Source of the DNA: Thermoanaerobaculia bacterium
GTDB taxonomy: Bacteria > Acidobacteriota > Thermoanaerobaculia > Gp7-AA8
Direction: 5' to 3'
Assembly (NCBI GenBank): GCA_035273585.1
Contig: DATEOX010000532.1
Span: forward strand, 1 to 56,319
DNA length: 56,319 bases
Shown: piece after piece, positions 1,999-30,791 of the stretch
How the letters are laid out: every line of letters begins with the position of its first letter
Position numbering within the stretch: the stretch's first letter is position 1
Notes under the pieces: model-generated
What the model was told of the DNA's origin: nothing
Database searches by the model: none
Seen by the model: the letters and a program-made list of their open reading frames with translations, nothing else
Translations under genes and position numbers: made by a program

Positions 1999-2984
1999 CG
2001 CTTCTCCGGCACGAACGTGGCGTGATGCAGATAGTTGTTCGTCAGCGTCGTGACCATCGCCGTGAACGACACGATGTACTGCAGCTCGTCGCCGCCGACG
2101 CGCAGGTCGAGCTCCTCGACGCGGCGGAGCAGGTGATCGACCAGTGACCGGACGACGCCCGGCTGGACGCCGGTCCAGTACGAAGCCTCATCGATGAAGT
2201 GCAGGCGGTGCCGCCGGAGGAGCGGCGCCGCCGGCGGGCCGTCGTCATCGAAGAGCTGGCGCAGGTCGCCGTCGAACCACGTCGGCGGGATCTCCACGCG
2301 CGGCTCGCGACGGCGGTCGTAGTAGTCGCCGACCGTGTACGTCATCTCCTCGACGGGCATGTCGCGCCGCGACGGCTTCACCTTTGGCGCCTCGCCGCCG
2401 AGCGCGCGCAGCACGTGGTCGACGTACTCGAGCTTGCGCAGCGCGCCGGTGCCGGCGTAGCGCGTGCGCCAGTCGCTGCGCGGCGTGAGCCAGACGGCGA
2501 ACGTCTCGGCGAAGTCCTCGTCGGGATGCTTCTGCGCGTACCAGCCGGCGATGTGCCGCACGTAATCGCGCGAGAACGGGTTCGGCTGGTAGTTCTCGAT
2601 GTACGGCCGCGAGTAGGGGCCGAACACGCGGTGCCACTCCTCCGTCTCGTACAGCACGTACGCGTAATTGAAGGCGTGGCCGGCCTCGTGGCGGAGGTAC
2701 ATCATCGACTCCTCCGCGGTCTCCAGGTTCTCGGCGATCTCCCGCTCGATCTGCGCCAGCTTGGAGCTGGCCAGGTAGAACGGCACGCCGATCACCGGCA
2801 CCCCTTCCGGGCAGCCCCACTCATCGGTCAGGTAGATGGGGGGCTTGAATTGCAGGCCGGCCTCGTCCAGCTCGCCGTAGAGCTGCTGGATCATCGGTTC
2901 CAGCTCGCTGCCCTCGATGCGCAGGCCGAGGTCGCTGATGCGCTTGTGCAGCAGCAGCTCGCGCTCCTCGTGCCATCCGCTCAT
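1995..2984 (-). CDS. Putative zinc metallopeptidase (HExxH)
   Basis: HEAGHAF motif. 4-nt overlap with the upstream ATP-grasp gene (2981-2984) suggests translational coupling. Confidence 0.65.
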   Translation of the reverse strand: MSGWHEERELLLHKRISDLGLRIEGSELEPMIQQLYGELDEAGLQFKPPIYLTDEWGCPEGVPVIGVPFYLASSKLAQIEREIAENLETAEESMMYLRHEAGHAFNYAYVLYETEEWHRVFGPYSRPYIENYQPNPFSRDYVRHIAGWYAQKHPDEDFAETFAVWLTPRSDWRTRYAGTGALRKLEYVDHVLRALGGEAPKVKPSRRDMPVEEMTYTVGDYYDRRREPRVEIPPTWFDGDLRQLFDDDGPPAAPLLRRHRLHFIDEASYWTGVQPGVVRSLVDHLLRRVEELDLRVGGDELQYIVSFTAMVTTLTNNYLHHATFVPEKR

Positions 2985-4024
2985 GTCTTCGTGCCTCGCA
3001 TGCTGCGGGCCATGGCCAGCTCCACGATGCGCTCGATGAGGTCGCCGTACGTCAGCTCCGGCTTGCGCCGCCGCGAGGCCATGGCGAATTCCGCGCGGTG
3101 GTCGAGCCAGGGGTTCGGATTGACCTCGATGACGAACGGCGTGCCGTCAGGCGCGAGGCGCATGTCGATGCGCGCGTAGTCGCGGATGAGCATCGCACTC
3201 CCGGCCGCGATCGCCGTTTCCTGGATGCGCCTCAGCAGCTCCGCGTCGCCCATCACATCCTCGGGCACGAACTGCTTCGCCTCCTTGAAGTCGTTTTCCC
3301 ACTTCGCCTCGGTGCCGGCGATGCGCGGCAGGTCGGCGGGCAGCTTGGAGAGGTCCCACTCGATGGGCGGCAGTGCCTCCAGCGGGTTGCCCAGCAGACC
3401 AACGTAGATCTCCCGCCCCTCGATGTACTGCTCGACGAGCGCCGGCGTGTGGAACTCGGAGTGGATGGCGAAGACGCGCTCCATCAGCTCGTCGATGCTG
3501 TTCACGATGGAGCGCGCGTTGATGCCGATGGAGGCGTCGGTGGCGATCGGCTTCACGATCAGCGGGAAGGTGTTGAGCGTCGACTTCGCCTCCACCCTTC
3601 CCGGCCCGATGATGGCGAACTCCGGCGAGCTGACGCGGTGGAAGTCGAACAGTTTCTTCGATAGCGACTTGTCGCCCGCCAGGGTGAGCGCCAGCGACGC
3701 CGAGCCGGTGAACCGCTTGTCCAGCAGTTCCAGCACGGCCGCGATCCGCCGCTCCTCGCCGCCGTCGCCGCCGAGGGACTCGCAGACGTTGAAGATGAGA
3801 TCGGAGTTGTCATCCTCGATGAGCCGCACCAGTTTCTTGATCGGCGACTGCGCGGCGAGCAGCTTCACCTCGTAGCCGCGCTTGGTCAGGACGTCGCCGA
3901 CCTGCGTCGAAACGAGCGCCGGGAACTTCTCCTTCTTCGCCAGCGCCTCCTCGCGCACGCGGTCTTCCTCCGCGTCGTACAGGACGGTGATGGTGGGCTT
4001 CTTGTCGGGTTTCGCGTTCGCCAC
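2981..4024 (-). CDS. D-alanine--D-alanine ligase family ATP-grasp enzyme
   Basis: Ddl-like layout: FPLIVKP...SIGI, VEQYIEGREIYVG, RIDMRL...FVIEVNPNP. Confidence 0.8.
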   Translation of the reverse strand: MANAKPDKKPTITVLYDAEEDRVREEALAKKEKFPALVSTQVGDVLTKRGYEVKLLAAQSPIKKLVRLIEDDNSDLIFNVCESLGGDGGEERRIAAVLELLDKRFTGSASLALTLAGDKSLSKKLFDFHRVSSPEFAIIGPGRVEAKSTLNTFPLIVKPIATDASIGINARSIVNSIDELMERVFAIHSEFHTPALVEQYIEGREIYVGLLGNPLEALPPIEWDLSKLPADLPRIAGTEAKWENDFKEAKQFVPEDVMGDAELLRRIQETAIAAGSAMLIRDYARIDMRLAPDGTPFVIEVNPNPWLDHRAEFAMASRRRKPELTYGDLIERIVELAMARSMRGTKT

Positions 4025-4055
4025 GCACCGGGGTGGTGAAAAGAGGATGCCAGCT

Positions 4056-5357
4056 TCAGCCGTGCAGCGCCGCAGCCGGCTGCAGATCCCTCACCGTTTG
4101 CAGCGCGAGCGCAGCCTGCCGGTCGCGCTTCTCGATCTTTTTCGCGCGCCCGATCTTGTCCTCGATCAGCCCCCACGTCACGTTCGACGGCTGGTAGCGG
4201 TCGGGCGATGACTCGGCCACGTGGCGGCCGAGAGCGCCCAGCGCCGTGTGGTACGGCAGCGGCGCGGGATCGTCGATGTAGCGCGCCACGAGGAGGCCGA
4301 CCGCGGCCGACTCGACGTAGCCTTCCACGCCGGTGATCTGGCCGGCGAAGAAGACGCACTCGTCGCGCTTGGCGCGGAAGGTCGGCATCAGGTGCCGCGG
4401 GCCGTTGATGAACGTGTTGCGGTGCATGGAGCCGAAGCGGGCGAAGGTCGCGTTCTCCAGGCCGGGGATCATCCGGATGACCCGCTGCTGGGCGCCGACC
4501 TTCATCTTCGTCTGGAAGCCGACGAGGTTGAAGTATTCGTCGGAGAGGTCTTCCTTGCGCAACTGCACCACGGCGTGCGGACGCTCGCCGGTCACCGGAT
4601 GCTCCAGGCCGACCGGCTTCATGGGGCCGAAGCGGAGCGTGTCGATGCCGCGGCTGGCAATCTCTTCGACCGGCAGGCAGCCTTCGAAGTGCACCGCCTC
4701 CTCGAAGTCGTGCAGCGGGTAGAGCTCGGCGGCGAGCAGCGCGGCGACGAACGCCTCGTACTCGCTCTGCGTCATCGCCGCGTTGAGGTAGTCGGTGCCG
4801 CTCCCCTTGCCGTAGCGCGACTTCCAGTAGAGCTTCGACATGTCCAGCGAGTCGGCGGCCACGATCGGCGCGATGGCGTCGTAGAAATACAAACCGTCGC
4901 GCCCGAGGAAGTCGTTGATCGCATCGAAGAGCGGCTGCGAGGTGAGCGGGCCGGTGGCCACCACGAGGTAGTCGTATCCGTCGCGGTCGAGTGACGTCAC
5001 CTCTTCGCGATGCAGGGTGATGTTGGCCTCATGGGCGATGGCGGACGTCACCGCGGCCGCGAAGCGCTCCCGATCGACGGCGAACGCATCGCCGGCCGGC
5101 ACGCGCGCGGCCTCGCCGCAGCGGATGACCATCGAGCCGAGGAGGGCCATCTCCTGCTTGAGCAGGCCGACGGCATTGGCGGTCGCGGACGACCGGAACG
5201 AGTTCGAGCAGACCAGCTCCGCCAGGTCGGAGGACTGATGGGCGGGCGTGGTCTTCACCGGCCGCATCTCGAAGAGGTCGACCACGTGCCCCGCGCGCGC
5301 GAGCTGGAACGCGCATTCCGAGCCGGCCAGGCCGGCGCCGATCACCTTGACGCGCAT
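4056..5357 (-). CDS. trmFO: Methylenetetrahydrofolate--tRNA-(uracil-5-)-methyltransferase TrmFO
   Basis: N-terminal FAD fold VIGAGLAGSECA, LVCSNSFR motif, full-length 433 aa typical of TrmFO. Confidence 0.9.
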   Translation of the reverse strand: MRVKVIGAGLAGSECAFQLARAGHVVDLFEMRPVKTTPAHQSSDLAELVCSNSFRSSATANAVGLLKQEMALLGSMVIRCGEAARVPAGDAFAVDRERFAAAVTSAIAHEANITLHREEVTSLDRDGYDYLVVATGPLTSQPLFDAINDFLGRDGLYFYDAIAPIVAADSLDMSKLYWKSRYGKGSGTDYLNAAMTQSEYEAFVAALLAAELYPLHDFEEAVHFEGCLPVEEIASRGIDTLRFGPMKPVGLEHPVTGERPHAVVQLRKEDLSDEYFNLVGFQTKMKVGAQQRVIRMIPGLENATFARFGSMHRNTFINGPRHLMPTFRAKRDECVFFAGQITGVEGYVESAAVGLLVARYIDDPAPLPYHTALGALGRHVAESSPDRYQPSNVTWGLIEDKIGRAKKIEKRDRQAALALQTVRDLQPAAALHG

Positions 5358-6697: not shown

Positions 6698-6721
6698 GCA
6701 GGGGGTGGGGAGGAGGGCGAT

Positions 6722-6901
6722 TTGGTCGGGCAGGGGGGATTTGAACCCCCGACCACCTGAACCCGATGAAGCCCCATGTCGAGATATCATGGGACCTCCT
6801 TTGTCCAAGCGCTTACTATACCAGCATTTACGATAGCGCGTATCTCAAGACGTCTCGGGATACAGGGCGAAAAAAAGGTCACAAGTCGCGTACTAGGCGC
6901 G
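6722..6901 (-). repeat. 180-bp direct repeat copy 1 with tRNA-3'-half-like end (T-arm + acceptor 3' strand + ACCA)
   Basis: Minus-strand sense ends ...GGTCGGGGGTTCAAATCCCCCCTGCCCGACCA (T-arm at 6734-6750). 86/88 identical to 15005-15092, then conserved blocks out to 6901. Confidence 0.8.
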
Positions 6902-7074
6902 GGTTTTTTCATAAACGAAAAATGACCTGATCATCGACCGAGCCGAGCATCGAGACAGATGAGGACTGTTTGGCGTCGTCGGCGGGGAGCGTGAGTCTCT
7001 CCGTCCTGCATGGGTAATTTCACGACGCCTACCGTGGGGACGTCGTCGCCGTGGGCGTACGACGTCGCGCTCTG

Positions 7075-7719
7075 CTACACCCGCAAGATGACCGCATCGA
7101 TAGCTGTCGCGTTCAAGATGATGGCGAACACGATCACGAGGACATTCGTGATGACGACGGCGGCTGCCACACCGATCACAATCGAGCGAATCGTCGTTGA
7201 TGCAGTCGCCCGTTGCGCGGCGGAGCCGATGAACGCGGCCGCGACAGCGACGAACACGGCTCCTAGGGCGCCCAGCAGCACGTCATCGCGGGCAGATAGA
7301 AAAACCCGTGCGCGGGCTACGACGCCATGCGCTCTCCGGAGGGAGAAGTGACGCACGATGCAGCAGCAGCGGCGGCAGCGCCACCGTCGACAGAGAAGGC
7401 CGTAAGTGGTGGCGGCTGGCACGTCGTTCTCCATTCGGCGAAAGGGCGCGAGGTGGAAGAAACGGTGGCCGAACATCAAAGTACGCGGTGAGAAGCGTTG
7501 TGAAGCGGACAATCCTGATGCTGTCGCTCGCGTCGGCGCCGCTAACAGTGCAATGCCAACGACGAAGGTAATCAGCGACAGCATCGCGACGAGAACGAGA
7601 TCGAACTGCCGCTTCACGTCGCGGAGGGTGCTTCGAGTTTGACGAATCTCGCCGTGCCGTCCTGAGCAAAGAGGAGGACGTCGTCCGCTCGCGCTTCCGC
7701 GGCGGTGAGCGTGGTCCAT
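7075..7719 (-). CDS. Hypothetical membrane protein
   Basis: High GC3 in this frame and predicted TM helices (LVLVAMLSLITFVVGIALLAA; IVIGVAAAVVITNVLVIVFAIIL). Start uncertain. Confidence 0.35.
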   Translation of the reverse strand: MDHAHRRGSASGRRPPLCSGRHGEIRQTRSTLRDVKRQFDLVLVAMLSLITFVVGIALLAAPTRATASGLSASQRFSPRTLMFGHRFFHLAPFRRMENDVPAATTYGLLCRRWRCRRCCCIVRHFSLRRAHGVVARARVFLSARDDVLLGALGAVFVAVAAAFIGSAAQRATASTTIRSIVIGVAAAVVITNVLVIVFAIILNATAIDAVILRV

Positions 7720-8140
7720 CGATAAGACTCGTAGGTCGCGCGCGCACGATCATGGTCTCCTTCGCCACCGGTTCGGAGACTCCCGCGCGGTGCGCGGGCC
7801 ATCGACGATAATCGCAATCACTCCCCCAAAACGGCTGTGCTCTCGCCGTTCTGAACGATGTACATCCCTCCGCACACGAGCTCGTTCGTGCGCACGAGGT
7901 AGGCGGAAAAACGACGCATCCGAGACAGACAGCCCCACGATCCCGGCGAAGAACTTCCAGCTCAGTGGATCGGCGAGCTTCCGCCGCACCGACGCGCAGC
8001 TCGCCGAAGCGGTGCAGGCGCTGATGGCGAAGCTTCCGGCGGAGCGAGGCGACGTGCGATGCTTTGAGGCCCGCGCAAGGCCGGCGATTTCCAATGCCTC
8101 CGGCGCGGCGGTCAGCAGCGCTTGTTGCGAGCGAGAGGCC

Positions 8141-8159
8141 GATAACTGGAAATTATCAG
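8141..8159 (+). promoter_or_regulatory. 19-bp palindromic motif GATAACTGGAAATTATCAG, 8 nt upstream of the ATP-grasp ATG
   Basis: Identical 19/19 to the reverse complement of 11580-11598. GATAA-N7-TTATC inverted repeat. Confidence 0.7.
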
Positions 8160-8167
8160 GGCCACCT

Positions 8168-9151
8168 ATGCAGCGAATACCCGCCATCGTGTTGCTCGCC
8201 GACCGTGTATCGAACCACTCCGCGGCGTCGCTCAGCAGCGCGGATCTCGAGTTCGCGGATGATGAATACTTCGGCGACCTGCTCTCCGGCCTGCAGCAGA
8301 TTGCGCCGTCCGTGACGCATCACGACGATATCGTCGGCTTCATCGATCGGATCGAGCAGCACCGCGATCACCTGGTCATATCGACGTGGTCGGGCGAACG
8401 TTCCAGAAATCGGCGCGCCCTCGTTCCCTCCGTCTGCGAGGCGTATGGCGTGGCTTACGTCGGTGCCGACGCGTATACAAGCGCGGTGTGTCAGGACAAA
8501 CATCTGTCGAAGCGGCTCTGTGCCGATTTCGGGCTCGCCACCCCGGCAGGCGTCCTCATTCGCGGCGACGCCGATATGGACTTGCTCGACGCGATCCGTT
8601 ACCCGGCTGTTGTGAAGCCGAACCATCAGGGGGGATCGATCGGGATCGGCGCCGACTGCCTCGTGGCTTCGACCGGCGCGGCGGCGGGTACCGTGCGCCG
8701 ATTGCTCACGGCGTTCGGCCCTCCCGTGATCGTGGAGGAGTTCATTCGAGGCCGGGAGGTGTCGGTCGTATTCGCCGGTAGCCGTAAAGGTGTCGCCGTG
8801 GCGGAGGCGGTCGAGATCACGCTGAGCGGTTCGGGGCCGGCGCTCGCCGACACGATCTGGAGTTTCGAGATGAAGAAACAGTACTCGCGAAGCGCTGCGT
8901 ATGCGTCAGCCGCCCACCTCATCGACGCCGTCGACATGGAGCGCTGTACGCGTCTCTTTCACGCCTTGCAGAAATGCGAGTATCTCCGCATCGACGGCCG
9001 CGTTCGCGACAGCGGCTTCACGATCATCGAGCTCAGCCCTGACGCCTACCTCGGCAGCGACGGTGCAGTCGCCGCTGCATTTCAGCAGCGCGGTGCCGGA
9101 TACGCCGAAATGCTCATCACACTGGTTCGGTGCGCGTATGAAAATCGCTGA
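8168..9151 (+). CDS. Ddl-like ATP-grasp ligase
   Basis: YPAVVKPNHQGGSIGI, VIVEEFIRGREVSVV, RIDGRV...IIELSPDA. Start set at MQRIPAIV because the shared upstream motif lies inside the longer ORF. Confidence 0.75.
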   Translation: MQRIPAIVLLADRVSNHSAASLSSADLEFADDEYFGDLLSGLQQIAPSVTHHDDIVGFIDRIEQHRDHLVISTWSGERSRNRRALVPSVCEAYGVAYVGADAYTSAVCQDKHLSKRLCADFGLATPAGVLIRGDADMDLLDAIRYPAVVKPNHQGGSIGIGADCLVASTGAAAGTVRRLLTAFGPPVIVEEFIRGREVSVVFAGSRKGVAVAEAVEITLSGSGPALADTIWSFEMKKQYSRSAAYASAAHLIDAVDMERCTRLFHALQKCEYLRIDGRVRDSGFTIIELSPDAYLGSDGAVAAAFQQRGAGYAEMLITLVRCAYENR

Positions 9152-11573
9152 TCGGGAAGTGCCAGTAGGACAGAAGAACCAGGTCGAAGGGAAAAGCCGC
9201 GACGAATTCAGCATCCGGATCCAGCACTGGCTCACCGTAAAGGCGGTGATTCCACAACGACGGCATGTCGTTCGAGCAGCCGCGCGCCTTCTCCAGATAA
9301 CGTTGGTGTGCCGCGGCGTTGCCGGTTCGCTCGTAGTGTGACGCGATATTGAAATACGTGATGCAATGCAGAACCTCGTCGGGCTGCGTCGGCAGGAACG
9401 TCACGAGCTCACCGGCAACGGCTTCTGCGTAGCCAAGGTCATTGCCGATACTCTTCGCTGCGAGAAGGTTGTTCAGCACGGCAATCCGATCGAATGAAGA
9501 CGTCGCCGTCTCCAGAGCCCGCACGAATAATTCCGACGCGGAGTCGCTCGGATTACCCGTGTAGAGTCGGATGATGCCGCGGTTGTTGAGCGTGATGTGG
9601 CGCTCGAGAGAGCGGCCGACCAGCGCTGCTTCCGCTGCTTCGAGCTCCCGCAGTGCCTCGTCGAGCCGCCCGAGGCGGGTGAGCTGCATGGAAATACTGA
9701 TTCGCGAATGCGCGGCGTCTTCGGGCAGGCCGAGCTGATCGAATAGGTCGATGCTCCTGCGTAGATACGGCAGCGTCGCGGCAAAACCGTAGAATATCTG
9801 CGTATTGCGAAGAACGTATCCATACTCGCGGAGGCCTATGTAGCGACGGTCTTGAAGAAGCGCCTCGAATAGTTTCACCGCTTCGTCGAAGCGATTGAGC
9901 GAGCGGAGGCTGAGGACCAGGATCAGCTTCATCGTCAGCTCATGAGCGGCATCATCATCCGGCGTCGCGAGGGCGTCGCGGACGAATGCGACGGCGTCGG
10001 CGTGAGCGTCGGTCCGGTCGAGCAGCGCGGCCCGGTACGCACTCCAGCGCGGACCGCGTGCACGGATCGTATCCAGTAGTGCGAATGCGCGCTCATAAAG
10101 ACCGAAGGCGTAATAGATGTCGAGCAGCGCGAAGGCGACCGTGTCGATCACCCGTGCTGAAGCGCTTCCCAGCCGCGTGAGCGTATCCCTCAACGTCTCC
10201 AGGACGCGCAGCGCCTGCCGTGGATAAAGCTGCTCGAGCGCGAAGCGGCGGATTTCCGGAATCAGCCCGAGCGTGCTCGCAGGATCGGTGTGCAACATGA
10301 ATTCGAAGAAGCGGGAGAGGACTTCGCTCCGGCTGAGGACCGAATAGTTCCGCTCCCTGTGCAGATGCCGATAAAACTCCTCCCATGCCGCATATGCCAG
10401 GAGCCGGAATCGGAGGTATGTCTCCGACGTCATGACGATCGGCGAGATCGAGTCGTGTGCAACGACGAGTCGCCCGTCGCGGTCTTCGCGGATGAACTCC
10501 TCGGCGGCCAGTTGGGTCGTCGCCGTATCGAAGCTGACGAACAGGCGCTGCGTGACGTCGGCGGTCGCGTACAAACCCGACAGGAGCTCCGGCGAAACGG
10601 CTCCTCCATGCGTCACGATGCACGCGAGCGTGAACTGCGCGGGCTCGCGCAGCGTCAGCAGCCGATGCGCGGTCGCATTCCATTCCGGCTGCGAAACAGC
10701 CGAGCGGCGACCGAAGACCGGGTCGACATCTACGACGACGTCGAAGTCCTTCAGTTGACGCAGATTTCCGTGATGGGAGATGTATACCTTCTCGACCACT
10801 GCCTCGACGTCTTCGTGCTGCAACAGCGTCAATGCGTCTTTGACTGGCAACATCCGTAACTCACGCTGACTGACGCGCGCGACGTGACTCTGCAGCGCGC
10901 GGATGAGCTCGTGCTCGCGCCGTCCGCGGGTGTCATTGGTCGTGAACTCGAGAATGACGAAATGGCCGTTGTCGTGCGCCAGGATCTTCAGAAGCAGGTC
11001 GAGAGAGGTCTGGTCGATGACCTGTGCATTTTCGATACAGATGCACAAGCTGACGCCGTTCATGACCCATCTGACGTAATCGCCGAGCATCAGCGTGATC
11101 TCGGACGTCGTGGCACCCCAGATCGAGTTCGGGTCGAATTGGCCGCGGTTCGCCAGGCGGTCGCCGATGACCTTGATCGGCTTGACGAACGTCGCGTTCA
11201 GCCAGCCGAGAACGCCTTCGCCGAAGGTCGCCAACAGCATGTCGTGATAGCGCGAGCGCATGTCGGGTGTCGGTACATCGCGCAGATATGTCCCGAGGGG
11301 TACGAGGGGTTGACAGGTGGCGGCCGCACCGTCGATCGCCCGCGCCAGTGCGTGCAGGAACGCGCCCTCCGGATGCTGCGCGGACGGCATGTCGACGCGC
11401 ACGTGGGCTTTTTCCGGCTTCTCGCGCTGTAGCTTCGCCGTGAACGACGATTTTCCGATGCCGCTGATAGCCGAGAGGACAACTACGCGGTTTTCCGGAT
11501 CGTCGACGGCCAATGCGGCTTTGAACTCTGCCAATTCAGGTAAACGATTGACGAAACCGTCCGCTGTGATCAT
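9117..11573 (-). CDS. STAND-type P-loop NTPase with C-terminal TPR-like helical repeats
   Basis: FVNRLPELAEF...VVVLSAISGIGKSSF (Walker A), LCICIENAQVID (Walker B). C-terminal half has repeated helical hairpins (YYAFGLYERAFALLD, RFDEAVKLFEALL, GRLDEALRELEAAE, YFNIASHYERTGN). No N-terminal effector domain. Confidence 0.75.
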   Translation of the reverse strand: MITADGFVNRLPELAEFKAALAVDDPENRVVVLSAISGIGKSSFTAKLQREKPEKAHVRVDMPSAQHPEGAFLHALARAIDGAAATCQPLVPLGTYLRDVPTPDMRSRYHDMLLATFGEGVLGWLNATFVKPIKVIGDRLANRGQFDPNSIWGATTSEITLMLGDYVRWVMNGVSLCICIENAQVIDQTSLDLLLKILAHDNGHFVILEFTTNDTRGRREHELIRALQSHVARVSQRELRMLPVKDALTLLQHEDVEAVVEKVYISHHGNLRQLKDFDVVVDVDPVFGRRSAVSQPEWNATAHRLLTLREPAQFTLACIVTHGGAVSPELLSGLYATADVTQRLFVSFDTATTQLAAEEFIREDRDGRLVVAHDSISPIVMTSETYLRFRLLAYAAWEEFYRHLHRERNYSVLSRSEVLSRFFEFMLHTDPASTLGLIPEIRRFALEQLYPRQALRVLETLRDTLTRLGSASARVIDTVAFALLDIYYAFGLYERAFALLDTIRARGPRWSAYRAALLDRTDAHADAVAFVRDALATPDDDAAHELTMKLILVLSLRSLNRFDEAVKLFEALLQDRRYIGLREYGYVLRNTQIFYGFAATLPYLRRSIDLFDQLGLPEDAAHSRISISMQLTRLGRLDEALRELEAAEAALVGRSLERHITLNNRGIIRLYTGNPSDSASELFVRALETATSSFDRIAVLNNLLAAKSIGNDLGYAEAVAGELVTFLPTQPDEVLHCITYFNIASHYERTGNAAAHQRYLEKARGCSNDMPSLWNHRLYGEPVLDPDAEFVAAFPFDLVLLSYWHFPISDFHTRTEPV

Positions 11574-11579
11574 GAAATT

Positions 11580-11598
11580 CTGATAATTTCCAGTTATC
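11580..11598 (-). promoter_or_regulatory. Second copy of the 19-bp motif, 6 nt upstream of the STAND NTPase ATG
   Basis: Reverse complement reads GATAACTGGAAATTATCAG. An additional GATAAC lies 26 nt further upstream (+ strand GTTATC at 11618-11623). Confidence 0.7.
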
Positions 11599-11647
11599 GC
11601 CGTATCCGGCCGGCGATGTTATCTCACGAACGATGCCGAGGCCGGAA

Positions 11648-12259
11648 TTACTTACCTGCTGATGGTCGGTCCAGCCAACACCATTCCCCATTGGTTACAG
11701 GATTCCGGTCCCACTGAAGACGTGACTGCGGCGCGTCTGCGAAGACGCGGATCGCGACGATCGGGTTGCCTGTGAGATCGCGTGAAGAGAGGTGCTTGTT
11801 TACAGAGGAGTCCCAGATATCGATCGTCCCGTCGGGACGGAAGAGTGCTGTTGCTTCGTGATAGATGTGGTGTCCTCGAATCCAGTGAGGCGTGCAGCCG
11901 GCCGAGCTCCAGAGCGCGTGCCACATGTCCACGGTCTGCTGCGGATAGCGGAAGATGAGTTGAACCGTGCTCGCCGATTCGCCGCGTACGCGGTAGAGAT
12001 CCGTCGTCACAGCGGAGAAAGCGCCGCAATCGAGCGTGACCGAATCGGGCAAATCGCACCACGCCATCGGCCACCGCCGCGGTCCCCATTCGTACCGCTC
12101 GCGCAGCCAGAGCGGCGGGGTGACGTGGCCCACGTCCGACCTCGAGAGCGACTGGTCCATGCCCCGCATCCACTCACGCGCTACCAGACAGCACGAGCCG
12201 TGGATGATTGGAACACTCGACTCCGGCCAGGCACCGGCGAGCTCGCGTACGTCAGTCAC
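11648..12259 (-). CDS. Hypothetical protein, possible papain/transglutaminase-like fold (Cys...His...Asp order)
   Basis: GTG start overlaps the stop of the upstream gene (GTGACTGA). LDCGAFS, then GHHIYHE about 55 aa later, then IDIWDSS. The fold call is inference only. Confidence 0.45.
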   Translation of the reverse strand: MTDVRELAGAWPESSVPIIHGSCCLVAREWMRGMDQSLSRSDVGHVTPPLWLRERYEWGPRRWPMAWCDLPDSVTLDCGAFSAVTTDLYRVRGESASTVQLIFRYPQQTVDMWHALWSSAGCTPHWIRGHHIYHEATALFRPDGTIDIWDSSVNKHLSSRDLTGNPIVAIRVFADAPQSRLQWDRNPVTNGEWCWLDRPSAGK

Positions 12260-14477
12260 GGACGGTCCCTCCAGCGAACGGCCAGGCCATGCTGACGTCG
12301 TATGCACCGGAGTCGAAGAACAGCAGCCGGTCGCCCGATCGAGGAGCGATCTTGAAGCCGAGGCGTGTCGCCAGAACGTCCGATTCCATACAGATGCTCC
12401 CCAATACGCGATCCGTGCCGGCGCCGAGCCACTGCGGCGCGCCATCTTTCGGAAGGTGAAGAATGCGATGCGGTTGACTCAGCGCCATCGGCAAGTCGGC
12501 GATCGACGCGTCGATGACGACATCAGCGCCATCGGCAGCCCTCCGGCACTCGAGAATGCTCGCGACCGTGGCACCCGCCCGTTCCGACACCGCTTTACCC
12601 GGCTCGAGCAGCACGCGCGTGACGGACGGGAGTTGTGCTCGCACGGCTCCGTTAAGAACATCGAGACGCGGGAGGAACAGGTCATTGAAATCGTCACTGT
12701 GCCAGCCGCCGCCGACGTCGAGTACGGCGGGCGGGCGACCGACGAGGTCCGCGATGCGGCGGGCCCACTGCAGCACGTCCATGAGCAGCGTCCACCACGC
12801 GTCGGGTCCGACGACGTCACTGGCCACGTGAAAATGAACCGCCCAGCGGCTGTGCTGTTCGAGCTCGGCGACGAGATCGCGCACCGCCGCGTGCTCGGCG
12901 AGCGGGATTCCGAAACGCGAAACGACGCGCGGCGGCCGCAGGCGCACGCCGAGCAGTTGAGCCCCGTTGCATCGATCGCGAAGCGTCGCGAGCGCGTCCA
13001 CTGAATCGGCGAACACGATTCCGGCCGCAGACGTGTCGTCGGTGCTGCTGCGCGGCCCGTTGAAAACGATCGAGTCGCGCGCAAACCCGGCGCGCGATGC
13101 CCAGGCCGCCTCCGCCGACGAAATTACCTCCGCCCACCACCCGCGGCGGAGCGCGATCGCGCCGAGCTCCGGGTCGGGATTCGTTTTGACGCTCAACGCC
13201 GGAGTGAAAAACGGCTCCTCGAACCGCGCCGTCGCCGCCGTCACCTCGGCCACGGCGGATTCGTGCACCTCGCCCAGCCGAATACGCGCCGGGGTGCGCG
13301 CCGTCCGAAGCGCCTCGGCCGCCGCGGCGGACCAACCGAGGGGCAACGGCATCGGAGTGCGACTGGCGCCGCGGAGAGGCAGCGCACCGCGCTCCGTGAG
13401 CTTCGCGCGGAGTTTCGGCTGCTGCGACGGGTGCTTCCCCACGGCGAGCATTGCCGCCCCTTTCGGAATCGCCGGCACATGGTGTGACGCGCGCGTGGGG
13501 AGCTCAACGACGACACGGACGAACTGCTCGCTTTGCGCCGCCGGATCCGCATACGGCAGGCCCGTCGCCTCGGCGATGAGACGCGCCGGCAGATTGAACC
13601 CGCAGAGCGCCGCGCCGAAGATATAGGCCGGAAATCGCGGATTCAGATCGATCAAAAACTTCGATCCATCCGGTGCGTAGATGAACTCCACCTCGCCGCC
13701 GCCTGTCCAGCAGGTTCTCTCGACGAAAAGGCGTACCTTCGCCGTCGCCTCGTCACTCAGCGGGCCGACCGACGCCGCCCAGGTTTTCCCGCGCGTCGTC
13801 ACCATTCGCTTTTCCACTCGTACCGCGCCGAGGAGCTCTCCGCGCCAGGCAGCGAACGCGTACGACTCTTCGTCCCCCTCCACCTCGCGTTGCACGAAGA
13901 CGTGCTCGGCGCCCCAGATCGACGTCATGTCTCGCAGGGTCGCGCGCAGCGCTGCAAAACCGCTCACCCGTACCGCGTCGTGGAACGTCCCTTTGACCCA
14001 CACCCGCCATCCAGCGCGGCGCGCGAACCGATAGAGCTCCCAATCGTCCGCGTTGCCAGGCAGTGAGGGTGGAAGCTGCATTCCGAGCGGGATCGCGCCT
14101 TCGATATCGGGTTTCCGGACATGGCTCAGCGCTTTGGAGCTCGGGAATAACAGGCCCTCTTCGTACGGAAGAGCGCCGCGCAGCCACGCGAGCTCGACGT
14201 CGAGTCCGCTGAGCCACATCGTCGGGCAATCAGACGCCTGCAGATCGCGACGAATCTGCGAGGCATACACGGCTAGATCGATCTGCGGCCAGGGAGGTTG
14301 AACGCGGACCTCGTCGAAATCGGGCCAATGAAGACCGCTGCTGCGCGGGCCATAGTCGATGCCGATGATTTCCGCGTCCGGAAAAGCCGCCCTGACGCAC
14401 CTCGCTAGGCCGATACCGGGAGACGGATCAGGATCGCTGTGTAACCCGGAGATCAATACGCGAATACTCGCCACCAT
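12252..14477 (-). CDS. Fusion protein: N-terminal ATP-grasp + C-terminal fold-type-III PLP decarboxylase (Orn/DAP/Arg decarboxylase family)
   Basis: ATG at 14477 with GGGGAGG SD. ATP-grasp motifs VWVKG, VFVQREVEG, EVEFIY...LIDLNPRF. Decarboxylase motifs ALSVKTNP, HFHVASD, LDVGGGW, EPGKAV, GSICMESD, DSGAYDVSM. Confidence 0.8.
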   Translation of the reverse strand: MVASIRVLISGLHSDPDPSPGIGLARCVRAAFPDAEIIGIDYGPRSSGLHWPDFDEVRVQPPWPQIDLAVYASQIRRDLQASDCPTMWLSGLDVELAWLRGALPYEEGLLFPSSKALSHVRKPDIEGAIPLGMQLPPSLPGNADDWELYRFARRAGWRVWVKGTFHDAVRVSGFAALRATLRDMTSIWGAEHVFVQREVEGDEESYAFAAWRGELLGAVRVEKRMVTTRGKTWAASVGPLSDEATAKVRLFVERTCWTGGGEVEFIYAPDGSKFLIDLNPRFPAYIFGAALCGFNLPARLIAEATGLPYADPAAQSEQFVRVVVELPTRASHHVPAIPKGAAMLAVGKHPSQQPKLRAKLTERGALPLRGASRTPMPLPLGWSAAAAEALRTARTPARIRLGEVHESAVAEVTAATARFEEPFFTPALSVKTNPDPELGAIALRRGWWAEVISSAEAAWASRAGFARDSIVFNGPRSSTDDTSAAGIVFADSVDALATLRDRCNGAQLLGVRLRPPRVVSRFGIPLAEHAAVRDLVAELEQHSRWAVHFHVASDVVGPDAWWTLLMDVLQWARRIADLVGRPPAVLDVGGGWHSDDFNDLFLPRLDVLNGAVRAQLPSVTRVLLEPGKAVSERAGATVASILECRRAADGADVVIDASIADLPMALSQPHRILHLPKDGAPQWLGAGTDRVLGSICMESDVLATRLGFKIAPRSGDRLLFFDSGAYDVSMAWPFAGGTVRD

Positions 14478-15004
14478 TCGCCTCCCCTCGAAGGAGTGAC
14501 CGGGCGGCAGCTTTCCACACCCGCCTATACCTTCGTGCTCAGGCCACCGTCGCGCTGCTGAACCTCCACTCACCATATTTTCGCTCGGGCGCGTCCTCGT
14601 AGCGGCCGCATACCCACGTGCGACCTCGACGCGCTCGCCCATGACCCACCACCCTCCCGGTGCGGAGAAGGAGAAGGTAAAGAGCCGCGTTGCGGTGCCA
14701 GGCTCCTGCGAGTACGACCACATCCCATTCGTGCACGAAGCAATGGGGCGGCACGTACAAAGAAGAGACCGCCGAAGCGGCGAAAGACGAATCGCCCTTA
14801 CCCCGAACTGCGCGCCTGATTTCCTTCTCCGTCCTCAACGGCGAGGCTCCCGAGGATCTCGTCGACCACGGCCGCTGCTGACTTCGGCGCGGAAAGGTCA
14901 CTAGAGGTGCGGCTCCAAGCGCACATCGACGCTCGCAGTTACTTTTGCGACTGCCGTGCGATTTGGTGGGTTCGCCTAAGTTGTTGGGGGAATTAGGGGT
15001 TAGA

Positions 15005-15184
15005 TTGGTCGGGCAGGGGGGATTTGAACCCCCGACCACCTGAACCCCATGAAGCCCCATGTCGAGATGTCATGGGACCTCCTTTGTCCAAGTCCTATTG
15101 TATCAGCATTTACGAGTGGCGATCATTTCGGGACATCTCGGGATACAGGGCGGAAAACGTGTCACTAGGCGCGTACTAGGCGCG
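15005..15184 (-). repeat. 180-bp direct repeat copy 2 with tRNA-3'-half-like end
   Basis: See copy 1. Lies about 530 bp upstream of, and in the same orientation as, the 14477->9117 gene string. Confidence 0.8.
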
Positions 15185-15191
15185 ACATTTC

Positions 15192-15225
15192 GAGAAAGAA
15201 AACGGCCCGGTCGATCGACCGGGCC
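15192..15225 (-). terminator. Rho-independent terminator of the 16599->15251 operon
   Basis: Perfect palindrome CGGCCCGGTCGA/TCGACCGGGCCG (15202-15225) followed on the minus strand by TTTTCTTTC. Confidence 0.65.
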
Positions 15226-15250
15226 GGGCAAAGTGAAGCGAGTGAGATGG

Positions 15251-15931
15251 TCAGCGGCGACGACGGCGGACATGCACAGGATGGGTGCGTGTCCATCCGG
15301 CCGAGAAGCGCGAGCGCGCGCGGCGCGCGCGGGCTTCCCGGCTGTCCTCGCGCTTCGGCAGCACGAAGTTCGCGAAGTAGACCCGCTCCATGAACGTGCG
15401 CGTGTCGAAGGCCAGCGCCCATGAACTGCCAATGAGCCCCGGCAACTGCCTGCCGTGGTCATTGAGCCAGCTATCCGAAACGCCGAGCATCGCGCGGACG
15501 ATCGGGCGGGTCAGCCGCCATCCAGTCGGGCGAGCACTGCACCCGCAGCGTCCACTCGCGCAGGCGTCGAGTTCCCACGGCGCGACTTCCTTCTTCCGAC
15601 CGATGTCGTGAACAATGTCGCGCCCGGTAAACGGATAAGGCATGAACGGCAGCACCAAGCCGCCCGGTTCCTTGTAGGGCAGGCAGCACTCCAACACGAT
15701 TGCGTTGCCGAAATCGATCAGCGCGCCGCCGCGCGGACCAACGGGGAAGGTGGTGGTGTAGAGCGTCTGCATCTTCGCCTCATCGAAGTAACGATGAACG
15801 CCGGGCAGACCTCCGGCGTTCATCACCAAATGATCTACTTCGTGCATCTCGGCGAACTGCTTGCGGAGTGAGCGCTCGCAGTTCGTGCAGGCGAAGACGC
15901 CGCCGCAGACAGTGCAGGCAGGAGCGGCCAT
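15251..15931 (-). CDS. Hypothetical protein (Cys-rich N-terminus CTVCGG...CTNC)
   Basis: ORF with start moved to MAAPACTV. Last gene of a three-gene minus-strand string. Confidence 0.45.
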   Translation of the reverse strand: MAAPACTVCGGVFACTNCERSLRKQFAEMHEVDHLVMNAGGLPGVHRYFDEAKMQTLYTTTFPVGPRGGALIDFGNAIVLECCLPYKEPGGLVLPFMPYPFTGRDIVHDIGRKKEVAPWELDACASGRCGCSARPTGWRLTRPIVRAMLGVSDSWLNDHGRQLPGLIGSSWALAFDTRTFMERVYFANFVLPKREDSREARARRARSRFSAGWTRTHPVHVRRRRR

Positions 15932-19636: not shown

Positions 19637-20323
19637 TTAATTGAAGTCTCCCGTTCGCGCAAGTCGTCGTGTCCGGAGAAGCAGTTTGTATTTCTCGGCT
19701 ACCCGCGCTGGCATATCGTGGAAGTAGATTTTGGTCGAATCGATGTCCTTGTGTCCGAGCCACCACTGCACATCCGCCAAGTCCCATCCGGCGCGCGCGA
19801 GGTGCGTCCCGCAGGTGTGGCGAAGGGCGTGTGGGTGCCGCAGGTCTGCGGGTATCCCTGCGGCGCGTGCGTAAAGCTGGAAAAGGTGGCTGATCGTTCC
19901 TTCCGTGAGCGGTCTAGCGCTCCTACGGCGGCCACGGAAGAGGTACGCGCAGGGGTCAGCAGGTCGCACATCCATGTAGGCGCGGAAGAGCCGCTTACTG
20001 CGCCCGTGGAGCGGATGCCAGTTTGCATCGCCGCCCTTGAGCCGCCAAATCCAGATCTCATCTCCGCGTACGTCCGTGACCTCCATGAGTGCCGCTTCGC
20101 CGCGTCGCAGGCCATGCCGATACATGAGATCGAACAGGAGCAGGTCGCGCACGTTTCCCTTTGGGATTTGCGCGAAGAATGCTTCCACCTGTTCGCGGGT
20201 AAGGAACTTGACCGGGTGCTGCGCGGGAGGCCGCCCTCCCCGCGACTGGTGCTCTCGCCGTAGGTGACGGGCGTTCCGGGGCTTGTGCTGCGCACGAAAG
20301 CCGATATTGGCACTTTTCCTCAT
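19637..20323 (-). CDS. Short tyrosine recombinase/integrase (copy 1)
   Basis: GLRRGEA (Arg), HALRHT (His-x-x-Arg), WLGHKD, STKIYFH (Tyr). Start at MRKSANIG. Paralogous to 29424-30074. Confidence 0.85.
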   Translation of the reverse strand: MRKSANIGFRAQHKPRNARHLRREHQSRGGRPPAQHPVKFLTREQVEAFFAQIPKGNVRDLLLFDLMYRHGLRRGEAALMEVTDVRGDEIWIWRLKGGDANWHPLHGRSKRLFRAYMDVRPADPCAYLFRGRRRSARPLTEGTISHLFQLYARAAGIPADLRHPHALRHTCGTHLARAGWDLADVQWWLGHKDIDSTKIYFHDMPARVAEKYKLLLRTRRLARTGDFN

Positions 20324-20393
20324 TTTCGATAATTCAGATGATGGGGAACGGCGCACTCTGCGCGTGTGCCGTGAGATCGTCCAGCGCCTCGGC

Positions 20394-22292
20394 GTGTCGC
20401 TCATCGCGCTATTCATTCTGGGGATCGCAGTTCCGGTCTCGGCCGCGACGATCGTTACCTTCATCACGACAGGGAGCGGCGACACGATCAGCGTGACGAA
20501 CCCGCAGCTCGCGGCTGTCACCGGACGAATCCGGCTGATTCCTGACGCCGGTCCTGCGTCCGTACCCGCGCTCCCGTTTTCGCTCGCAAATCTCGAAACG
20601 AGATCGTTCCCGAACGTCCTCGCGAACTTCGGGGCGCCGAGTGCACCTGCGATCCTCGCCGTCGAGACTTCGGATGTCGTCAAAGTATCGAGCGCGTCGC
20701 TGCGTGTCGGCTTCCCGGACCGTCACCTGACGCTGCCAGTGCGATTCAATCCGGGGACCCCAGCTATCGGTTCCCTGACGCTGGGCATCCTGAACGGGCT
20801 GGTTCGCGTGAACATCTACGAGCATCAGGGAAGCGTCACGCCACTCGTCAGCCGCACGCTTGCAAGTTCTGGCGAAGAGGTCACGCGCCTTCGCTACGCC
20901 GATTTGCTGCCGGCGTCGATGATGATTAGTGACGGATACGCTGAGTTGATCCCGCCGAGCGGACAGGTCGTGGGGACTGCTGTGAATCCACCAACACGAC
21001 GACGTGCGGTCGCACCTCCATCGACACCGCCTCCGACGCTCTCGATCGCCGGATCGCCCGCGTGTGAATTCGCAACAGGCATCCGCGCGAGCGTGACGGC
21101 CGTTTCGGGCTCGACCTACCGGTGGTCGCTTATGAATGCAACAGCACAGGGATCTGTCGCGGGGAACACGCTTGATCTGGTTCTCGGCAGCCGGGGGTAC
21201 GCCTCGGTCGTACTCGAGCGCACGCTCGGTGGCTCGCTCTCGACCGTCGAGGCAGTCATCGCAATCGCTGGAAAACCCGGCTACGAAGGAAGCACTGCGT
21301 CGTCCGTCACCCTTGGAGAAGACGCCACGATCACGTGGACGCTCAGCGGGGCCGCACCTACGAGTCAAACGCTCTCGGGCACGGACTTCGGGGCCGTCAC
21401 TCTCGATCCTGCTGCGACGAGCTATGCCTATCGGCCGACGACAACGGGCTCGAAGACGTACACCCTCACCGCCGACAACGACTGCGGCAGCGGCAGTGCG
21501 CGCGGCGATTACACCGTGTCGGATGCATGCACAACTCCCCGCATTGATTCGTTCACCAACAGTGGGGCGGTGTGCGCAGGCAACGCCGTGCAACTTATGT
21601 GGGCGACATCAGGATCGGGCAGCGTCACGATTAACAACGGTGTCGGGGCCGTGCCAGCGAACGGTTCGATCTCCGTTTCCCCACCGTCAACAACACCCTA
21701 CATGCTGACGAAGACCGCAGCCTGTGGAACTGCCAACGCGACGACGGTGGCAACGGTGACAACGCCGAGCGCGTCGAGCTTTACGATTGACTTCAACCCG
21801 ATTGCGTTCGGCTGTGGCGTACCCGTCCACTTCACCATCGCCGACACCGCGACATGGACCGTTGCCAGCGCAGGTCACAATAGTCTCACCCCAAATTCCG
21901 GAACGGGCAGCGGAAGCTTTACGGCAATCTACGGGACAGATAACAGTGATGATAGTACGGACGTACTAACCTTGTCCCTGACCGACGCGTGCGGCAACAC
22001 GGCAACCCGCACGCTGAACGTCGCGGTGTCGACTCCATCGATCACGAGCTTTGCGACACCGGCATCTGTCGCGAGTGGGGCGAGTGGCACGATTACGTTC
22101 ACCTATTCAACGGCCACGCACTACACACTCACTTCCAGCTTGGGAAACAGTATCGTTCCGGCGACAGGCAACAGCACAAGCGGTGGGTCCGCCACGTATA
22201 CTCGCGACAAGGCCTCGGGTCCGGACACACTCACGCTGCACATCGCATTTGAGGGCTGCGATACCGCCACACAAACCCGCGTGATTAACTGA
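20394..22292 (+). CDS. Secreted Thr/Ser-rich repeat protein (Ig-like/beta-sandwich repeats likely)
   Basis: GTG start gives signal peptide VSLIALFILGIAVPVSAAT. Repetitive T/S/G-rich beta-strand-like segments. Confidence 0.55.
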   Translation: MSLIALFILGIAVPVSAATIVTFITTGSGDTISVTNPQLAAVTGRIRLIPDAGPASVPALPFSLANLETRSFPNVLANFGAPSAPAILAVETSDVVKVSSASLRVGFPDRHLTLPVRFNPGTPAIGSLTLGILNGLVRVNIYEHQGSVTPLVSRTLASSGEEVTRLRYADLLPASMMISDGYAELIPPSGQVVGTAVNPPTRRRAVAPPSTPPPTLSIAGSPACEFATGIRASVTAVSGSTYRWSLMNATAQGSVAGNTLDLVLGSRGYASVVLERTLGGSLSTVEAVIAIAGKPGYEGSTASSVTLGEDATITWTLSGAAPTSQTLSGTDFGAVTLDPAATSYAYRPTTTGSKTYTLTADNDCGSGSARGDYTVSDACTTPRIDSFTNSGAVCAGNAVQLMWATSGSGSVTINNGVGAVPANGSISVSPPSTTPYMLTKTAACGTANATTVATVTTPSASSFTIDFNPIAFGCGVPVHFTIADTATWTVASAGHNSLTPNSGTGSGSFTAIYGTDNSDDSTDVLTLSLTDACGNTATRTLNVAVSTPSITSFATPASVASGASGTITFTYSTATHYTLTSSLGNSIVPATGNSTSGGSATYTRDKASGPDTLTLHIAFEGCDTATQTRVIN

Positions 22293-30074: not shown

Positions 30075-30298
30075 AAGCGTTCGATGGGTAGAAAGAACGA
30101 AGAGGAATGCGCTTCTAAGCCTGCGGCCAGTTTGTCTTTCTGTAAACGTGGCCGCGTTGCAGGTTCCCGCTCACTCATTCATGAGGAGGTAGGCCCATGC
30201 CACCCGAACGACGTGATTCTGCTTCCCTTGCTAAGACACTCAAGCGAGTCTGTAACAAGCCGGTTGCAGCGAAAGGTGTTGATCTGAAAACGAAACGA

Positions 30299-30745: not shown

Positions 30746-30791
30746 ACCGGCCGGGCTTCACGTCTCGAACCAGCCTGACGTGCGTAGTAGG

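Follow-up and report, generated by a model that had tools for sequence, protein, structure and literature searches.

A candidate invertible cassette of a Ddl-like ligase and a STAND NTPase next to a two-enzyme module in an Acidobacteriota contig

Introduction

Do four adjacent genes that look like the parts of one pathway belong to one system? This question is raised by a segment of contig DATEOX010000532.1, from a Thermoanaerobaculia bacterium of the Acidobacteriota (GenBank assembly GCA_035273585.1), of which we analysed a stretch of 56,319 nucleotides (nt), called the window below. The segment encodes an ATP-grasp ligase that resembles D-Ala-D-Ala ligases (the Ddl-like ligase), a STAND NTPase with an array of TPR repeats, a 203-residue protein with a putative Cys-His-Asp triad, and a fusion of an ATP-grasp domain to a pyridoxal phosphate (PLP)-dependent decarboxylase of the ornithine/diaminopimelate (Orn/DAP) type. 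A sequence-only reading of the window had taken all four for a single small-metabolite or protein-tagging pathway under the control of a STAND-type switch. Here we report that the four families do not co-occur and that they form two pairs instead. The fusion and the 203-residue protein make up one pair. The Ddl-like ligase and the STAND protein make up the other, and probably constitute a 3.4-kb invertible cassette that alternates the two genes behind the genes upstream of it, with the enzyme pair as a separate module beside it. The switch of the locus, which had been sought in the STAND NTPase, is thus read as a DNA inversion.

Results

The source contig comes from an ENA metagenome assembly and is 62,592 nt long; the window corresponds to its positions 6274-62592. 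An independent gene caller applied to the source contig returned the same four products, of 741, 203, 818 and 327 residues, in agreement with the open reading frame map, and the genes lie where the sequence-only reading had put them (Table 1). The overlap that it had noted between the tails of the convergent Ddl-like and STAND genes is real and measures 35 bp (9117-9151). The GTG start of the 203-residue gene also overlaps the stop codon of the fusion gene, as had been claimed, by 8 nt. The domain assignments of the earlier reading hold, that of the 203-residue protein as a reasonable reading. ARAGORN called a 93-nt tRNA-Val(GAC) on the minus strand at 12193-12285, but this call is probably false, because it falls on coding sequence at the junction of the fusion and 203-residue genes and has no Rfam support.

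A co-occurrence check of the four families had been proposed together with the one-pathway reading, and its outcome contradicted that reading. The 203-residue family is rare, with 19 homologue clusters among 5.8 billion proteins, none of which is named and none of which has a Pfam domain. We examined ten related loci (numbered L001-L010 in our survey) from Alphaproteobacteria, Allosphingosinicella, Pyrinomonadaceae and soil metagenomes, and the fusion and the 203-residue gene were paired in all ten. In every readable contig the 203-residue gene directly followed a fusion homologue of 745-790 residues; in L008 and L009 the contig ends within the fusion gene. The two genes usually overlap by 20 nt, and by 8 nt in L007. 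The other neighbours of the pair vary from locus to locus, and neither a Ddl-like nor a STAND gene was found in any of the nine loci other than L007, which is a close relative of the window.

The Ddl-like ligase has a different partner. Its clade consists of about 40 homologues at 37-51% identity, and we read 4 of their loci through protein look-ups and another 15 in a scan limited to one genome for each species. In 11 of these loci the gene opposite the Ddl-like one, in convergent orientation, encodes a full-length STAND homologue of about 810 residues; the taxa include Mucilaginibacter, Ignavibacteria, Verrucomicrobiales, Bacteroidales, Bacillota, Alteromonadaceae, Magnetospirillum and Lachnospiraceae. 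The STAND homologue of L014 aligns with that of the window at 31% identity over 812 residues (E = 4e-135). A full HMMER scan for the STAND family gave 381 cluster representatives, nearly all of them 780-830 residues long and aligned end to end; a word-index search with the STAND protein matched the protein itself only. Since the broad STAND alignment was too diverse for the purpose, a scan of JGI metagenome loci was seeded with a closer STAND set and yielded 25 loci. All 20 of those with sequence downstream of the STAND gene carry a convergent Ddl-like gene. The overlap of the two 3' ends is kept as well, with a median spacing of -35 nt over 27 loci. Neither the fusion nor the 203-residue gene was present in any of more than 30 Ddl/STAND loci, which come from many phyla.

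Taken together, we conclude that the four families are two separate pairs and not one unit. The earlier reading had also named the possibility that the STAND gene is an unrelated neighbour. By this census it is unrelated to the fusion pair and very tightly bound to the Ddl-like gene, of which it is the obligate partner.

We found that the Ddl/STAND pair is enclosed by an inverted repeat that the earlier reading had not mentioned. In a repeat scan, 8133-8159 and 11580-11606 matched each other over 20 nt perfectly and over 27 nt at 89%. The motif GATAA-N7-TTATC occurs twice in the 56-kb window and in none of 100 shuffles of it, and the exact 20-nt core had no match in JGI metagenome contigs. Related cassettes have sites of the same kind. 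In cassette loci with both ends present, perfect inverted repeats of 17-82 nt lie just outside both first genes, and an inverted site pair was found in 17 of the 18 STAND-seeded metagenome loci in which both ends could be seen. Over 23 distinct pairs the consensus is nAATAAAG-GATAAct-nnan-ATTATc, in which an outer arm (...GATAA) and an inner arm (TTAT(C/G)...) are conserved and flank a 7-nt spacer, the ATAA-spacer-TTAT core being dif-like. The central spacer bases vary between loci and are the same in both copies within each locus. This pattern is that of tyrosine-recombinase crossover sites, and we take the repeats to be such sites. In L033 (sites at 6982 and 10798) the 16-nt core GATAACTGGAAATTAT is the same as in the window, yet the STAND protein is only 34% identical, and the spacers of all other loci differ; the shared core could be due to coincidence, constraint or site exchange.

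The position of the sites relative to the genes is also conserved. The start codons of both genes fall inside the repeat or at most 30 nt from it, and within a locus both genes can begin with the same site-to-start sequence, examples being ...ATTATG, ...TTATCAATG and ...TTATCATGC. This distance leaves little or no room for a promoter, so that the promoter, with most or all of the 5' leader, probably lies outside the cassette. Similarly, the 3' overlap, with its median of 35 nt, leaves no space for a terminator between the two genes.

Table 1. Positions in the window of the four genes, the putative recombination sites and cassette, and the outer direct repeats.
Feature	Positions	Strand	Remarks
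Ddl-like ATP-grasp ligase	8168-9151	+	327 residues; Dala_Dala_lig_C
STAND NTPase with TPR array	9117-11573	-	818 residues; Walker A SGIGKS; 3' end overlaps the Ddl-like gene by 35 bp
Transglutaminase/papain-like Cys-His-Asp protein (fold-level assignment)	11648-12259	-	203 residues; GTG start
ATP-grasp::Orn/DAP-type PLP decarboxylase fusion	12252-14477	-	741 residues
Left recombination site (putative)	8140-8159		perfect core CGATAACTGGAAATTATCAG; arm to 8133 at 89%; ends 8 nt before the Ddl-like ATG
Right recombination site (putative)	11580-11599		reverse complement of the same 20-mer; extends to 11606; 6 nt upstream of the STAND ATG
Candidate invertible cassette	8160-11579		3420 bp; two tail-to-tail genes
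Left direct repeat, ~230 nt	6722-6940		minus strand ends in tRNA/tmRNA-like T-arm, acceptor strand, CCA
Right direct repeat, ~230 nt	15005-15225		preceded by a strong terminator-like hairpin with T-run, 15226-15203, minus strand

Two close relatives bear on the orientation of the cassette. L007 is 97% identical to the window over 2950 nt and corresponds to window positions 14529 to 11580 joined at the core to window positions 8140 to 8253 in the opposite relative orientation. As a result, the gene behind the 203-residue gene is the Ddl-like gene in L007 and the STAND gene in the window. In the second relative, L011, which is likewise 97% identical, the Ddl-like gene and the 3' part of the STAND gene are present with the same 35-nt overlap, and the contig opens with the first base of the core. 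L007 is unlike the window ahead of its fusion gene, where it encodes an 81-residue XRE-family helix-turn-helix (HTH) protein (L007 293-538). Because the sequence ahead of the fusion differs, the fusion, the 203-residue gene and the cassette stand in different upstream contexts in the two genomes.

A recombinase gene accompanies the cassette in most other loci. A XerC/XerD-like recombinase of 305-330 residues adjoins the cassette in 18 loci, and its stop codon usually lies a few bases from the outer arm of the site. The proteins score E = 1e-66 to 1e-71 with the NCBIfam XerC/XerD models, under the equivalog cut-offs. The recombinase gene reads into the STAND side in six loci (L015, L026 of Lachnospiraceae bacterium 3-2, L030, L036, L039 and L040) and into the Ddl side in nine (L014, L016, L020, L022, L024, L033, L043, L045 and L047), and it is divergent in the remaining three (L019, L029 and L046). 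In addition, there are seven short contigs made up of the cassette, whose ends lie at the repeats or up to about 100 nt away (L017, L032, L035, L037, L041, L049 and L050). One of these, L032, is 100% identical to the cassette of L040, which comes from another sample, and ends at its 29-nt repeat. Contig breaks at the repeats are what assemblers yield when both orientations are present, and we take them as indirect evidence for inversion. From these loci we conclude that the cassette has a conserved architecture and its own family of sites, and that it occurs in both orientations, in close relatives as well as across genomes.

The same family of recombinases and sites also flanks other two-faced cassettes (L015, L029 and L042). 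The second segment of L015 sets a family-2 glycosyltransferase (GT2) and a methyltransferase against a 1048-residue protein. The first segment of L042 (4792-6885) sets a FabH-like KAS III against a 337-residue protein, and a Ddl/STAND cassette follows directly. L029 (5630-10910) opposes a distant Ddl-like ligase and a lysine-2,3-aminomutase-like radical-SAM protein to a TIR protein and a distant STAND. The arrangement in L015 (8663-19339, Mucilaginibacter oryzae DSM 19975) is a double one, in which a single Xer-like gene (13263-14210) lies between two invertible segments whose spacers differ; the first segment sets YbaK and Ddl against STAND, and a further lone site precedes an Endonuclease_NS_2 gene. 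The neighbours of the cassettes vary and include a cyclic-oligonucleotide-based antiphage signaling system (CBASS), an nSTAND1 gene, a conjugative coupling protein, an integrase of the conjugative transposon (CTn) type and housekeeping genes.

We next describe the two cassette proteins. The Ddl-like protein matches Pfam Dala_Dala_lig_C (E = 1.2e-11) and not Dala_Dala_lig_N, with matches that start at about residue 85-88. Models of D-Ala-D-Ala ligases score it at 57-73 bits, the best NCBIfam score being 73.5 against a cut-off of 243, and a profile of the clade finds D-Ala-D-Ala ligases and VanA as its nearest relatives in the PDB (E = 1e-20 to 1e-23). By these comparisons the protein belongs to a distinct clade and is not a Ddl or Van equivalog. 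A gene for a YbaK-like aminoacyl-tRNA-editing domain precedes the Ddl-like gene in about 40% of the cassettes with that region in view; the window cassette has none, and its Ddl-like gene faces a flank without a co-directional gene. No Ddl-like relatives were found in the viral contigs of IMG/VR, and we therefore set aside a phage origin of the cassette. Some members of the clade occur outside cassettes. In Bittarella massiliensis (L021/L023) a clade member stands beside glutamate racemase and gyrA without a recombination site, and the racemase, as a neighbour, hints at D-amino-acid chemistry. In L018, a metagenome-assembled genome from Acidobacteriota, the Ddl-like gene has a single relic site (6291) and converges on a Ser/Thr kinase-TPR protein. 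The window itself contains a second, unrelated Ddl-type ATP-grasp gene (2981-4024, minus strand, 347 residues), about 26% identical to the cassette ligase. The minus-strand run to which it belongs (1995-5357) also includes genes resembling Peptidase_Mx (1995-2984) and GIDA/FAD-oxidoreductases (4056-5357) as well as a DUF3467 gene, and looks like another small amide-bond cluster.

The STAND protein gave weak Pfam matches to AAA_16 and TPR. Its AlphaFold model, built from 51 sequences, has a mean predicted local distance difference test (pLDDT) score of 87; it has a P-loop domain at the N-terminus, along with a helical region and a long solenoid of TPR repeats. The best PDB match of the model is 6mfv, a solved STAND-TPR protein (E = 2.5e-10 over 790 columns), and further fold matches are TPR proteins, SAMD9, Apaf-1 and a plant TIR-NLR. 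The Walker A motif (GxGKS) and an IEN..D motif are invariant in the family. Neither an effector nor an HTH or other DNA-binding domain was found by Pfam or in the model, and the uniform family length of 780-830 residues agrees with the earlier description of this STAND protein as lacking both. In the window, the STAND ATG lies 74 nt beyond the stop codon of the 203-residue gene, and the interval contains no terminator-like site.

The remaining two genes form what we call module 1. The fusion protein matches Orn_Arg_deC_N (E = 1.4e-10) and, weakly, ATPgrasp_Ter, to which its homologues match more strongly; its lysA-like score is 81 bits, and among solved structures it is closest to arginine, ornithine and DAP decarboxylases and to BtrK. 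In an alignment of six family members the PLP half keeps S[VI]KTNPD (with the PLP-lysine), HFH, GGGW, EPG[KR], CME.D and GAYD, and the ATP-grasp half keeps WRVW[LV]KG, EES, GGGE.E and NPRFPA. Since the motifs of both halves are conserved, both are predicted to be catalytically competent. In the 203-residue family, Cys78 (LDCGA), His134 (YHE) and Asp150 (WD) are invariant in 20 sequences. The model (pLDDT 87) places Cys78 at the start of a helix (78-91) and His134 and Asp150 on strands (131-140 and 145-150). With an invariant triad and a model geometry that fits it, the earlier Cys-His-Asp reading of this protein is reasonable. The protein has no Pfam match, also not to the BtrH/C39 models, and the sole PDB sequence match from the family profile was spurious. 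Its Foldseek matches are weak (all E >= 0.01) and are mostly vasohibins, arylamine N-acetyltransferases, transglutaminase-like proteases, PeiP, TglA, transglutaminase 2 and CtaG. Judging from the model, it is reasonable to suggest that the protein belongs, at the level of fold, with transglutaminase/papain-like enzymes.

We conclude that module 1 is a self-contained, translationally coupled enzyme pair. Its reaction would consist of the ligation of an amino acid, its decarboxylation, and a transfer or trimming of the product. Butirosin and closthioamide biosynthesis each draw on three enzymes (PMC7183216): an ATP-grasp ligase, an Orn/DAP-fold PLP decarboxylase whose substrate is the ligated amino acid, and a Cys-His-Asp transacylase of the papain clan. 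The same three kinds of enzyme, represented there by BtrJ/BtrK/BtrH and CtaD/CtaF/CtaG, come together in module 1, and BtrK is among the PDB sequence matches of the fusion, as CtaG is among the weak fold matches of the 203-residue protein. Unlike in those pathways, the ligase and decarboxylase of module 1 are fused. The known pathways are also thiotemplated and need a carrier protein (BtrI, CtaE/CtaH), and none of the genes called in the window or in L001-L010 encodes a carrier (PP-binding) protein. Because of this, a free or protein-bound substrate is more likely for module 1. The butirosin analogy of the earlier reading is sensible as far as the combination of ligase, decarboxylase and Cys-His-Asp protein goes.

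Both module 1 and the cassette lie within a pair of outer direct repeats. A repeat scan confirmed the bracketing repeats of about 230 nt on which the earlier description of the segment had relied. They are 8283 nt apart, 98% identical in their first 88 nt, and share a 37-nt core that occurs twice where no occurrence is expected. On the minus strand both end in a tRNA/tmRNA-like 3' end, GGTCGGGGGTTCAAATCCCCCCTGCCCGACCA, with T-arm, acceptor strand and CCA. They were rejected as an intact tRNA, tmRNA or permuted tmRNA, because the 3' end alone matches and relaxed ARAGORN calls were inconsistent. There is no integrase between the repeats, which could be the att sites left by a degraded island or else copies of a gene for a small RNA whose end resembles a tRNA.

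Further features lie outside this segment. From about 15.2 to 44 kb the GC content is lower (0.53-0.62 against 0.64-0.69 in the flanks), and this region encodes a tyrosine integrase (19637-20683), an integrase fragment (about 29424-30092), a PKD-domain protein, a 1944-residue open reading frame (30621-36455) and HD, PNP_UDP_1, NUDIX, P-loop kinase-like, DUF4760, DUF7678 and DUF3841 genes. It looks like a large defence or mobile island beside the cluster. At the edge of the window, which cuts it, a cobalamin riboswitch aptamer (RF00174, 1-150, 72.8 bits) lies upstream of a gene for a TonB-dependent receptor (175-1998), and three amidohydrolase genes lie just outside the window on the same contig.

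Discussion

How would such a cassette work? We propose that a XerC/D-like tyrosine recombinase flips it between the two inverted dif-like sites. The cassette gene that faces the upstream transcription unit would be transcribed, and the other would be read antisense or stay silent, so that a cell would make the STAND protein or else the ligase, the latter with or without YbaK. The gene behind the fusion/203-residue operon is the STAND gene in the window (STAND "ON"), and the Ddl-like gene in L007. We infer that inversion is frequent and programmed, that expression is mutually exclusive, and that the cassette has a phase-variable role. As to that role, our best guess, which we hold with moderate to low confidence, is a choice between an enzyme state that modifies the envelope or a metabolite and an intracellular, NLR-like sensing state. 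The enzyme faces of the cassettes could act on cell-wall, surface or small-molecule substrates.

Several observations weigh against this interpretation. L007 continues for just 94 nt beyond the core, so a single mis-join could mimic the opposite orientation, although a mis-join is less likely because the 20-nt repeat is shorter than the usual assembly k-mers. The two orientations were seen in assembled contigs of different genomes. No XerC/D-like recombinase of the cassette family is encoded on the 62.6-kb source contig, and inversion in this genome would therefore need a trans-acting enzyme, unless the cassette is now static. Such an enzyme is possibly a paralogue or the host Xer system, which is speculation on our part; L031 is a second case of a cassette without an adjacent recombinase. 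The window integrase at 19637-20683 was considered as the invertase and set aside, as it shares just the catalytic motif with the cassette Xer-like family and lies outside the repeat bracket. A sigma-70 promoter scan of 6700-15300, a high-GC region, found none. PADLOC-DB v2 had no match for any of the four proteins. Lastly, some distal flanks have inward-pointing genes 100-400 nt away, and because distal flanks can carry such genes, mutual exclusivity of expression is a deduction from the layout. With these points taken into account, we still regard the invertible cassette beside a separate enzyme-pair module as the probable explanation of the locus.

We considered three alternatives. According to the one that survives best, the fusion, the 203-residue protein and the Ddl-like ligase are coupled in this lineage and form a three-enzyme operon in the L007 orientation; inversion would drop the ligase and turn on STAND, and the coupling would be functional here, not ancestral. 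L007 does read fusion, 203-residue gene and Ddl-like gene on one strand, with 74-76 nt between genes and no terminator-like site, and the junction is kept at 97% identity even though the sequence upstream of the fusion differs. The lack in the window cassette of the YbaK-like gene common in other loci would fit as well. The arrangement is confined to one lineage, however, and no biochemical link joins the three enzymes. As the cassette sits in many unrelated contexts, a chance insertion behind the pair would explain it equally well, and we consider such coupling unlikely, if worth keeping in view.

A second alternative does without an active switch. The inverted repeats would serve both genes as an operator or translation-initiation element, or would be the termini of a mobile cassette resembling a pdif module; rearrangements would be rare; and the STAND sensor and Ddl-like effector would be co-expressed in defence. 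The strict 1:1 pairing of STAND and Ddl-like genes suits a two-component system, the cassettes of the window and of L031 have no adjacent recombinase, the contexts include the CBASS neighbour, the nSTAND1 gene, the conjugative coupling protein and the CTn-type integrase, and a TIR gene is present inside one variant cassette (L029). This reading does not account for spacers that are locus-specific and yet identical within a locus, as expected of crossover sites and not of operators, nor for a recombinase that reads directly into the cassette, with the orientations divided 6:9. It is further opposed by relatives that are 97% identical and differ in orientation, by contigs that break exactly at the repeats, and by starts inside the sites combined with overlapping 3' ends, which suit alternative and not joint expression. 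We judge it improbable.

The original proposal, which assigns the four genes to a single pathway, for a small peptide or amino-acid-derived metabolite or for protein tagging, and lets STAND switch its expression or activity, can draw on the contiguity of the genes in two related genomes (the window and L007/L011), on three of the four being amide-bond enzymes and on a STAND protein without its own effector, but it is close to refuted by the co-occurrence census (nine fusion loci besides L007 without the cassette genes, and more than 30 Ddl/STAND loci without the fusion or 203-residue gene), and the cassette geometry lets either the Ddl-like or the STAND gene, and never both at once, lie behind the operon.

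The proposed invertible cassette can be compared with known systems. In the G segment of phage Mu and the C segment of P1, an invertible segment holds two convergent alternative gene sets, of which the one facing a fixed external promoter is expressed. The invertase gene lies just outside the segment, and the invertases are serine recombinases (Gin and Cin) that use 26-bp gix/cix sites and an enhancer. Their alternatives, variants of tail fibres, are homologous and have a constant 5' part in common. In architecture the cassette is closest to these segments, with two convergent alternatives read from outside. It differs from them in that its recombinase is a XerC/D-like tyrosine recombinase, its sites are dif-like, and its alternatives, a ligase and a STAND protein, are unrelated.

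In enzymology the cassette is closest to tyrosine-recombinase invertons and to Xer-bounded pdif modules. The pdif modules depend on host XerC/D and carry resistance or toxin-antitoxin genes as cargo. In Acinetobacter plasmids, these modules (pXerC/D) have inversely oriented Xer-type sites with an ATAA-spacer-TTAT core, and they can invert or relocate (PMC9947245). They are not known to have alternative genes whose start codons abut the sites, or a dedicated recombinase, whereas the cassette usually has an adjacent Xer-like gene that reads in. Gene-altering inversions have been surveyed by Milman et al. 2023 (PMC9881135). Like the type I restriction-modification hsdS shufflons with PsrA/CreX, the cassette has a recombinase beside inverted repeats, and in those invertons, too, inversion changes the expressed coding sequence and serves bet-hedging in phage-related loci. 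Invertons of the hsdS type swap homologous specificity modules inside one gene, whereas the cassette exchanges whole non-homologous open reading frames at their start codons. The text of the survey mentions no ATP-grasp or D-alanine ligase, and a "TPR protein" appears in a generic table only.

The STAND protein itself resembles the STAND/NLR-like defence proteins of the Avs type, in that it has a P-loop STAND core and a TPR array and occurs sporadically across phyla, sometimes in defence or mobile contexts. Unlike those proteins, it has no fused effector and no PADLOC match, and is obligately paired with a Ddl-like ligase in a candidate invertible cassette. We found no description of a Ddl-like/STAND invertible cassette in the survey of gene-altering inversions or in the full-text literature, the coverage of which is incomplete, so that an earlier description is possible. 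The cassette is widespread and appears to be undescribed.

Programmed inversions are known to flip promoters or swap homologous specificity modules. The cassette described here would swap two complete and unrelated genes at their start codons; its conservation extends from Acidobacteriota to Bacillota, and both its site family and its cargo are distinct. If our interpretation is true, an NLR-like STAND family and a Ddl-like ligase family join the phase-variable functions, and both of these orphan families gain a context that can be tested. In that case, inverted pairs of AATAAAG-GATAACT-N4-ATTATC would also be a sequence signature with which to find more cassettes.

We further suggest, as a tentative idea that may well prove wrong, that Xer-like two-faced cassettes across phyla let single cells choose between a set of small-molecule or envelope enzymes and an effector-less, NLR-like STAND/TPR (or TIR) protein. 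The enzyme set would be a Ddl-like ligase, alone or together with a YbaK-like deacylase, and in sister cassettes a glycosyltransferase and methyltransferase, a ketosynthase, or a ligase and aminomutase. The two products would be opposed or complementary, and their exclusion would be the point; examples would be the producer and the sensor of a peptide-like ligand, or the modifier and the reader of a cell component. Were this so, the cassettes would bring a new kind of regulatory logic to immunity or kin interaction in bacteria.

For the locus from which we started, we conclude that the segment is composite, with a conserved two-enzyme module joined to an invertible cassette, the latter with the probability given above. 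It also holds a warning for annotation, since tight gene clusters in islands can be mosaics of this kind, and apparent operon partners change with the orientation of the DNA.

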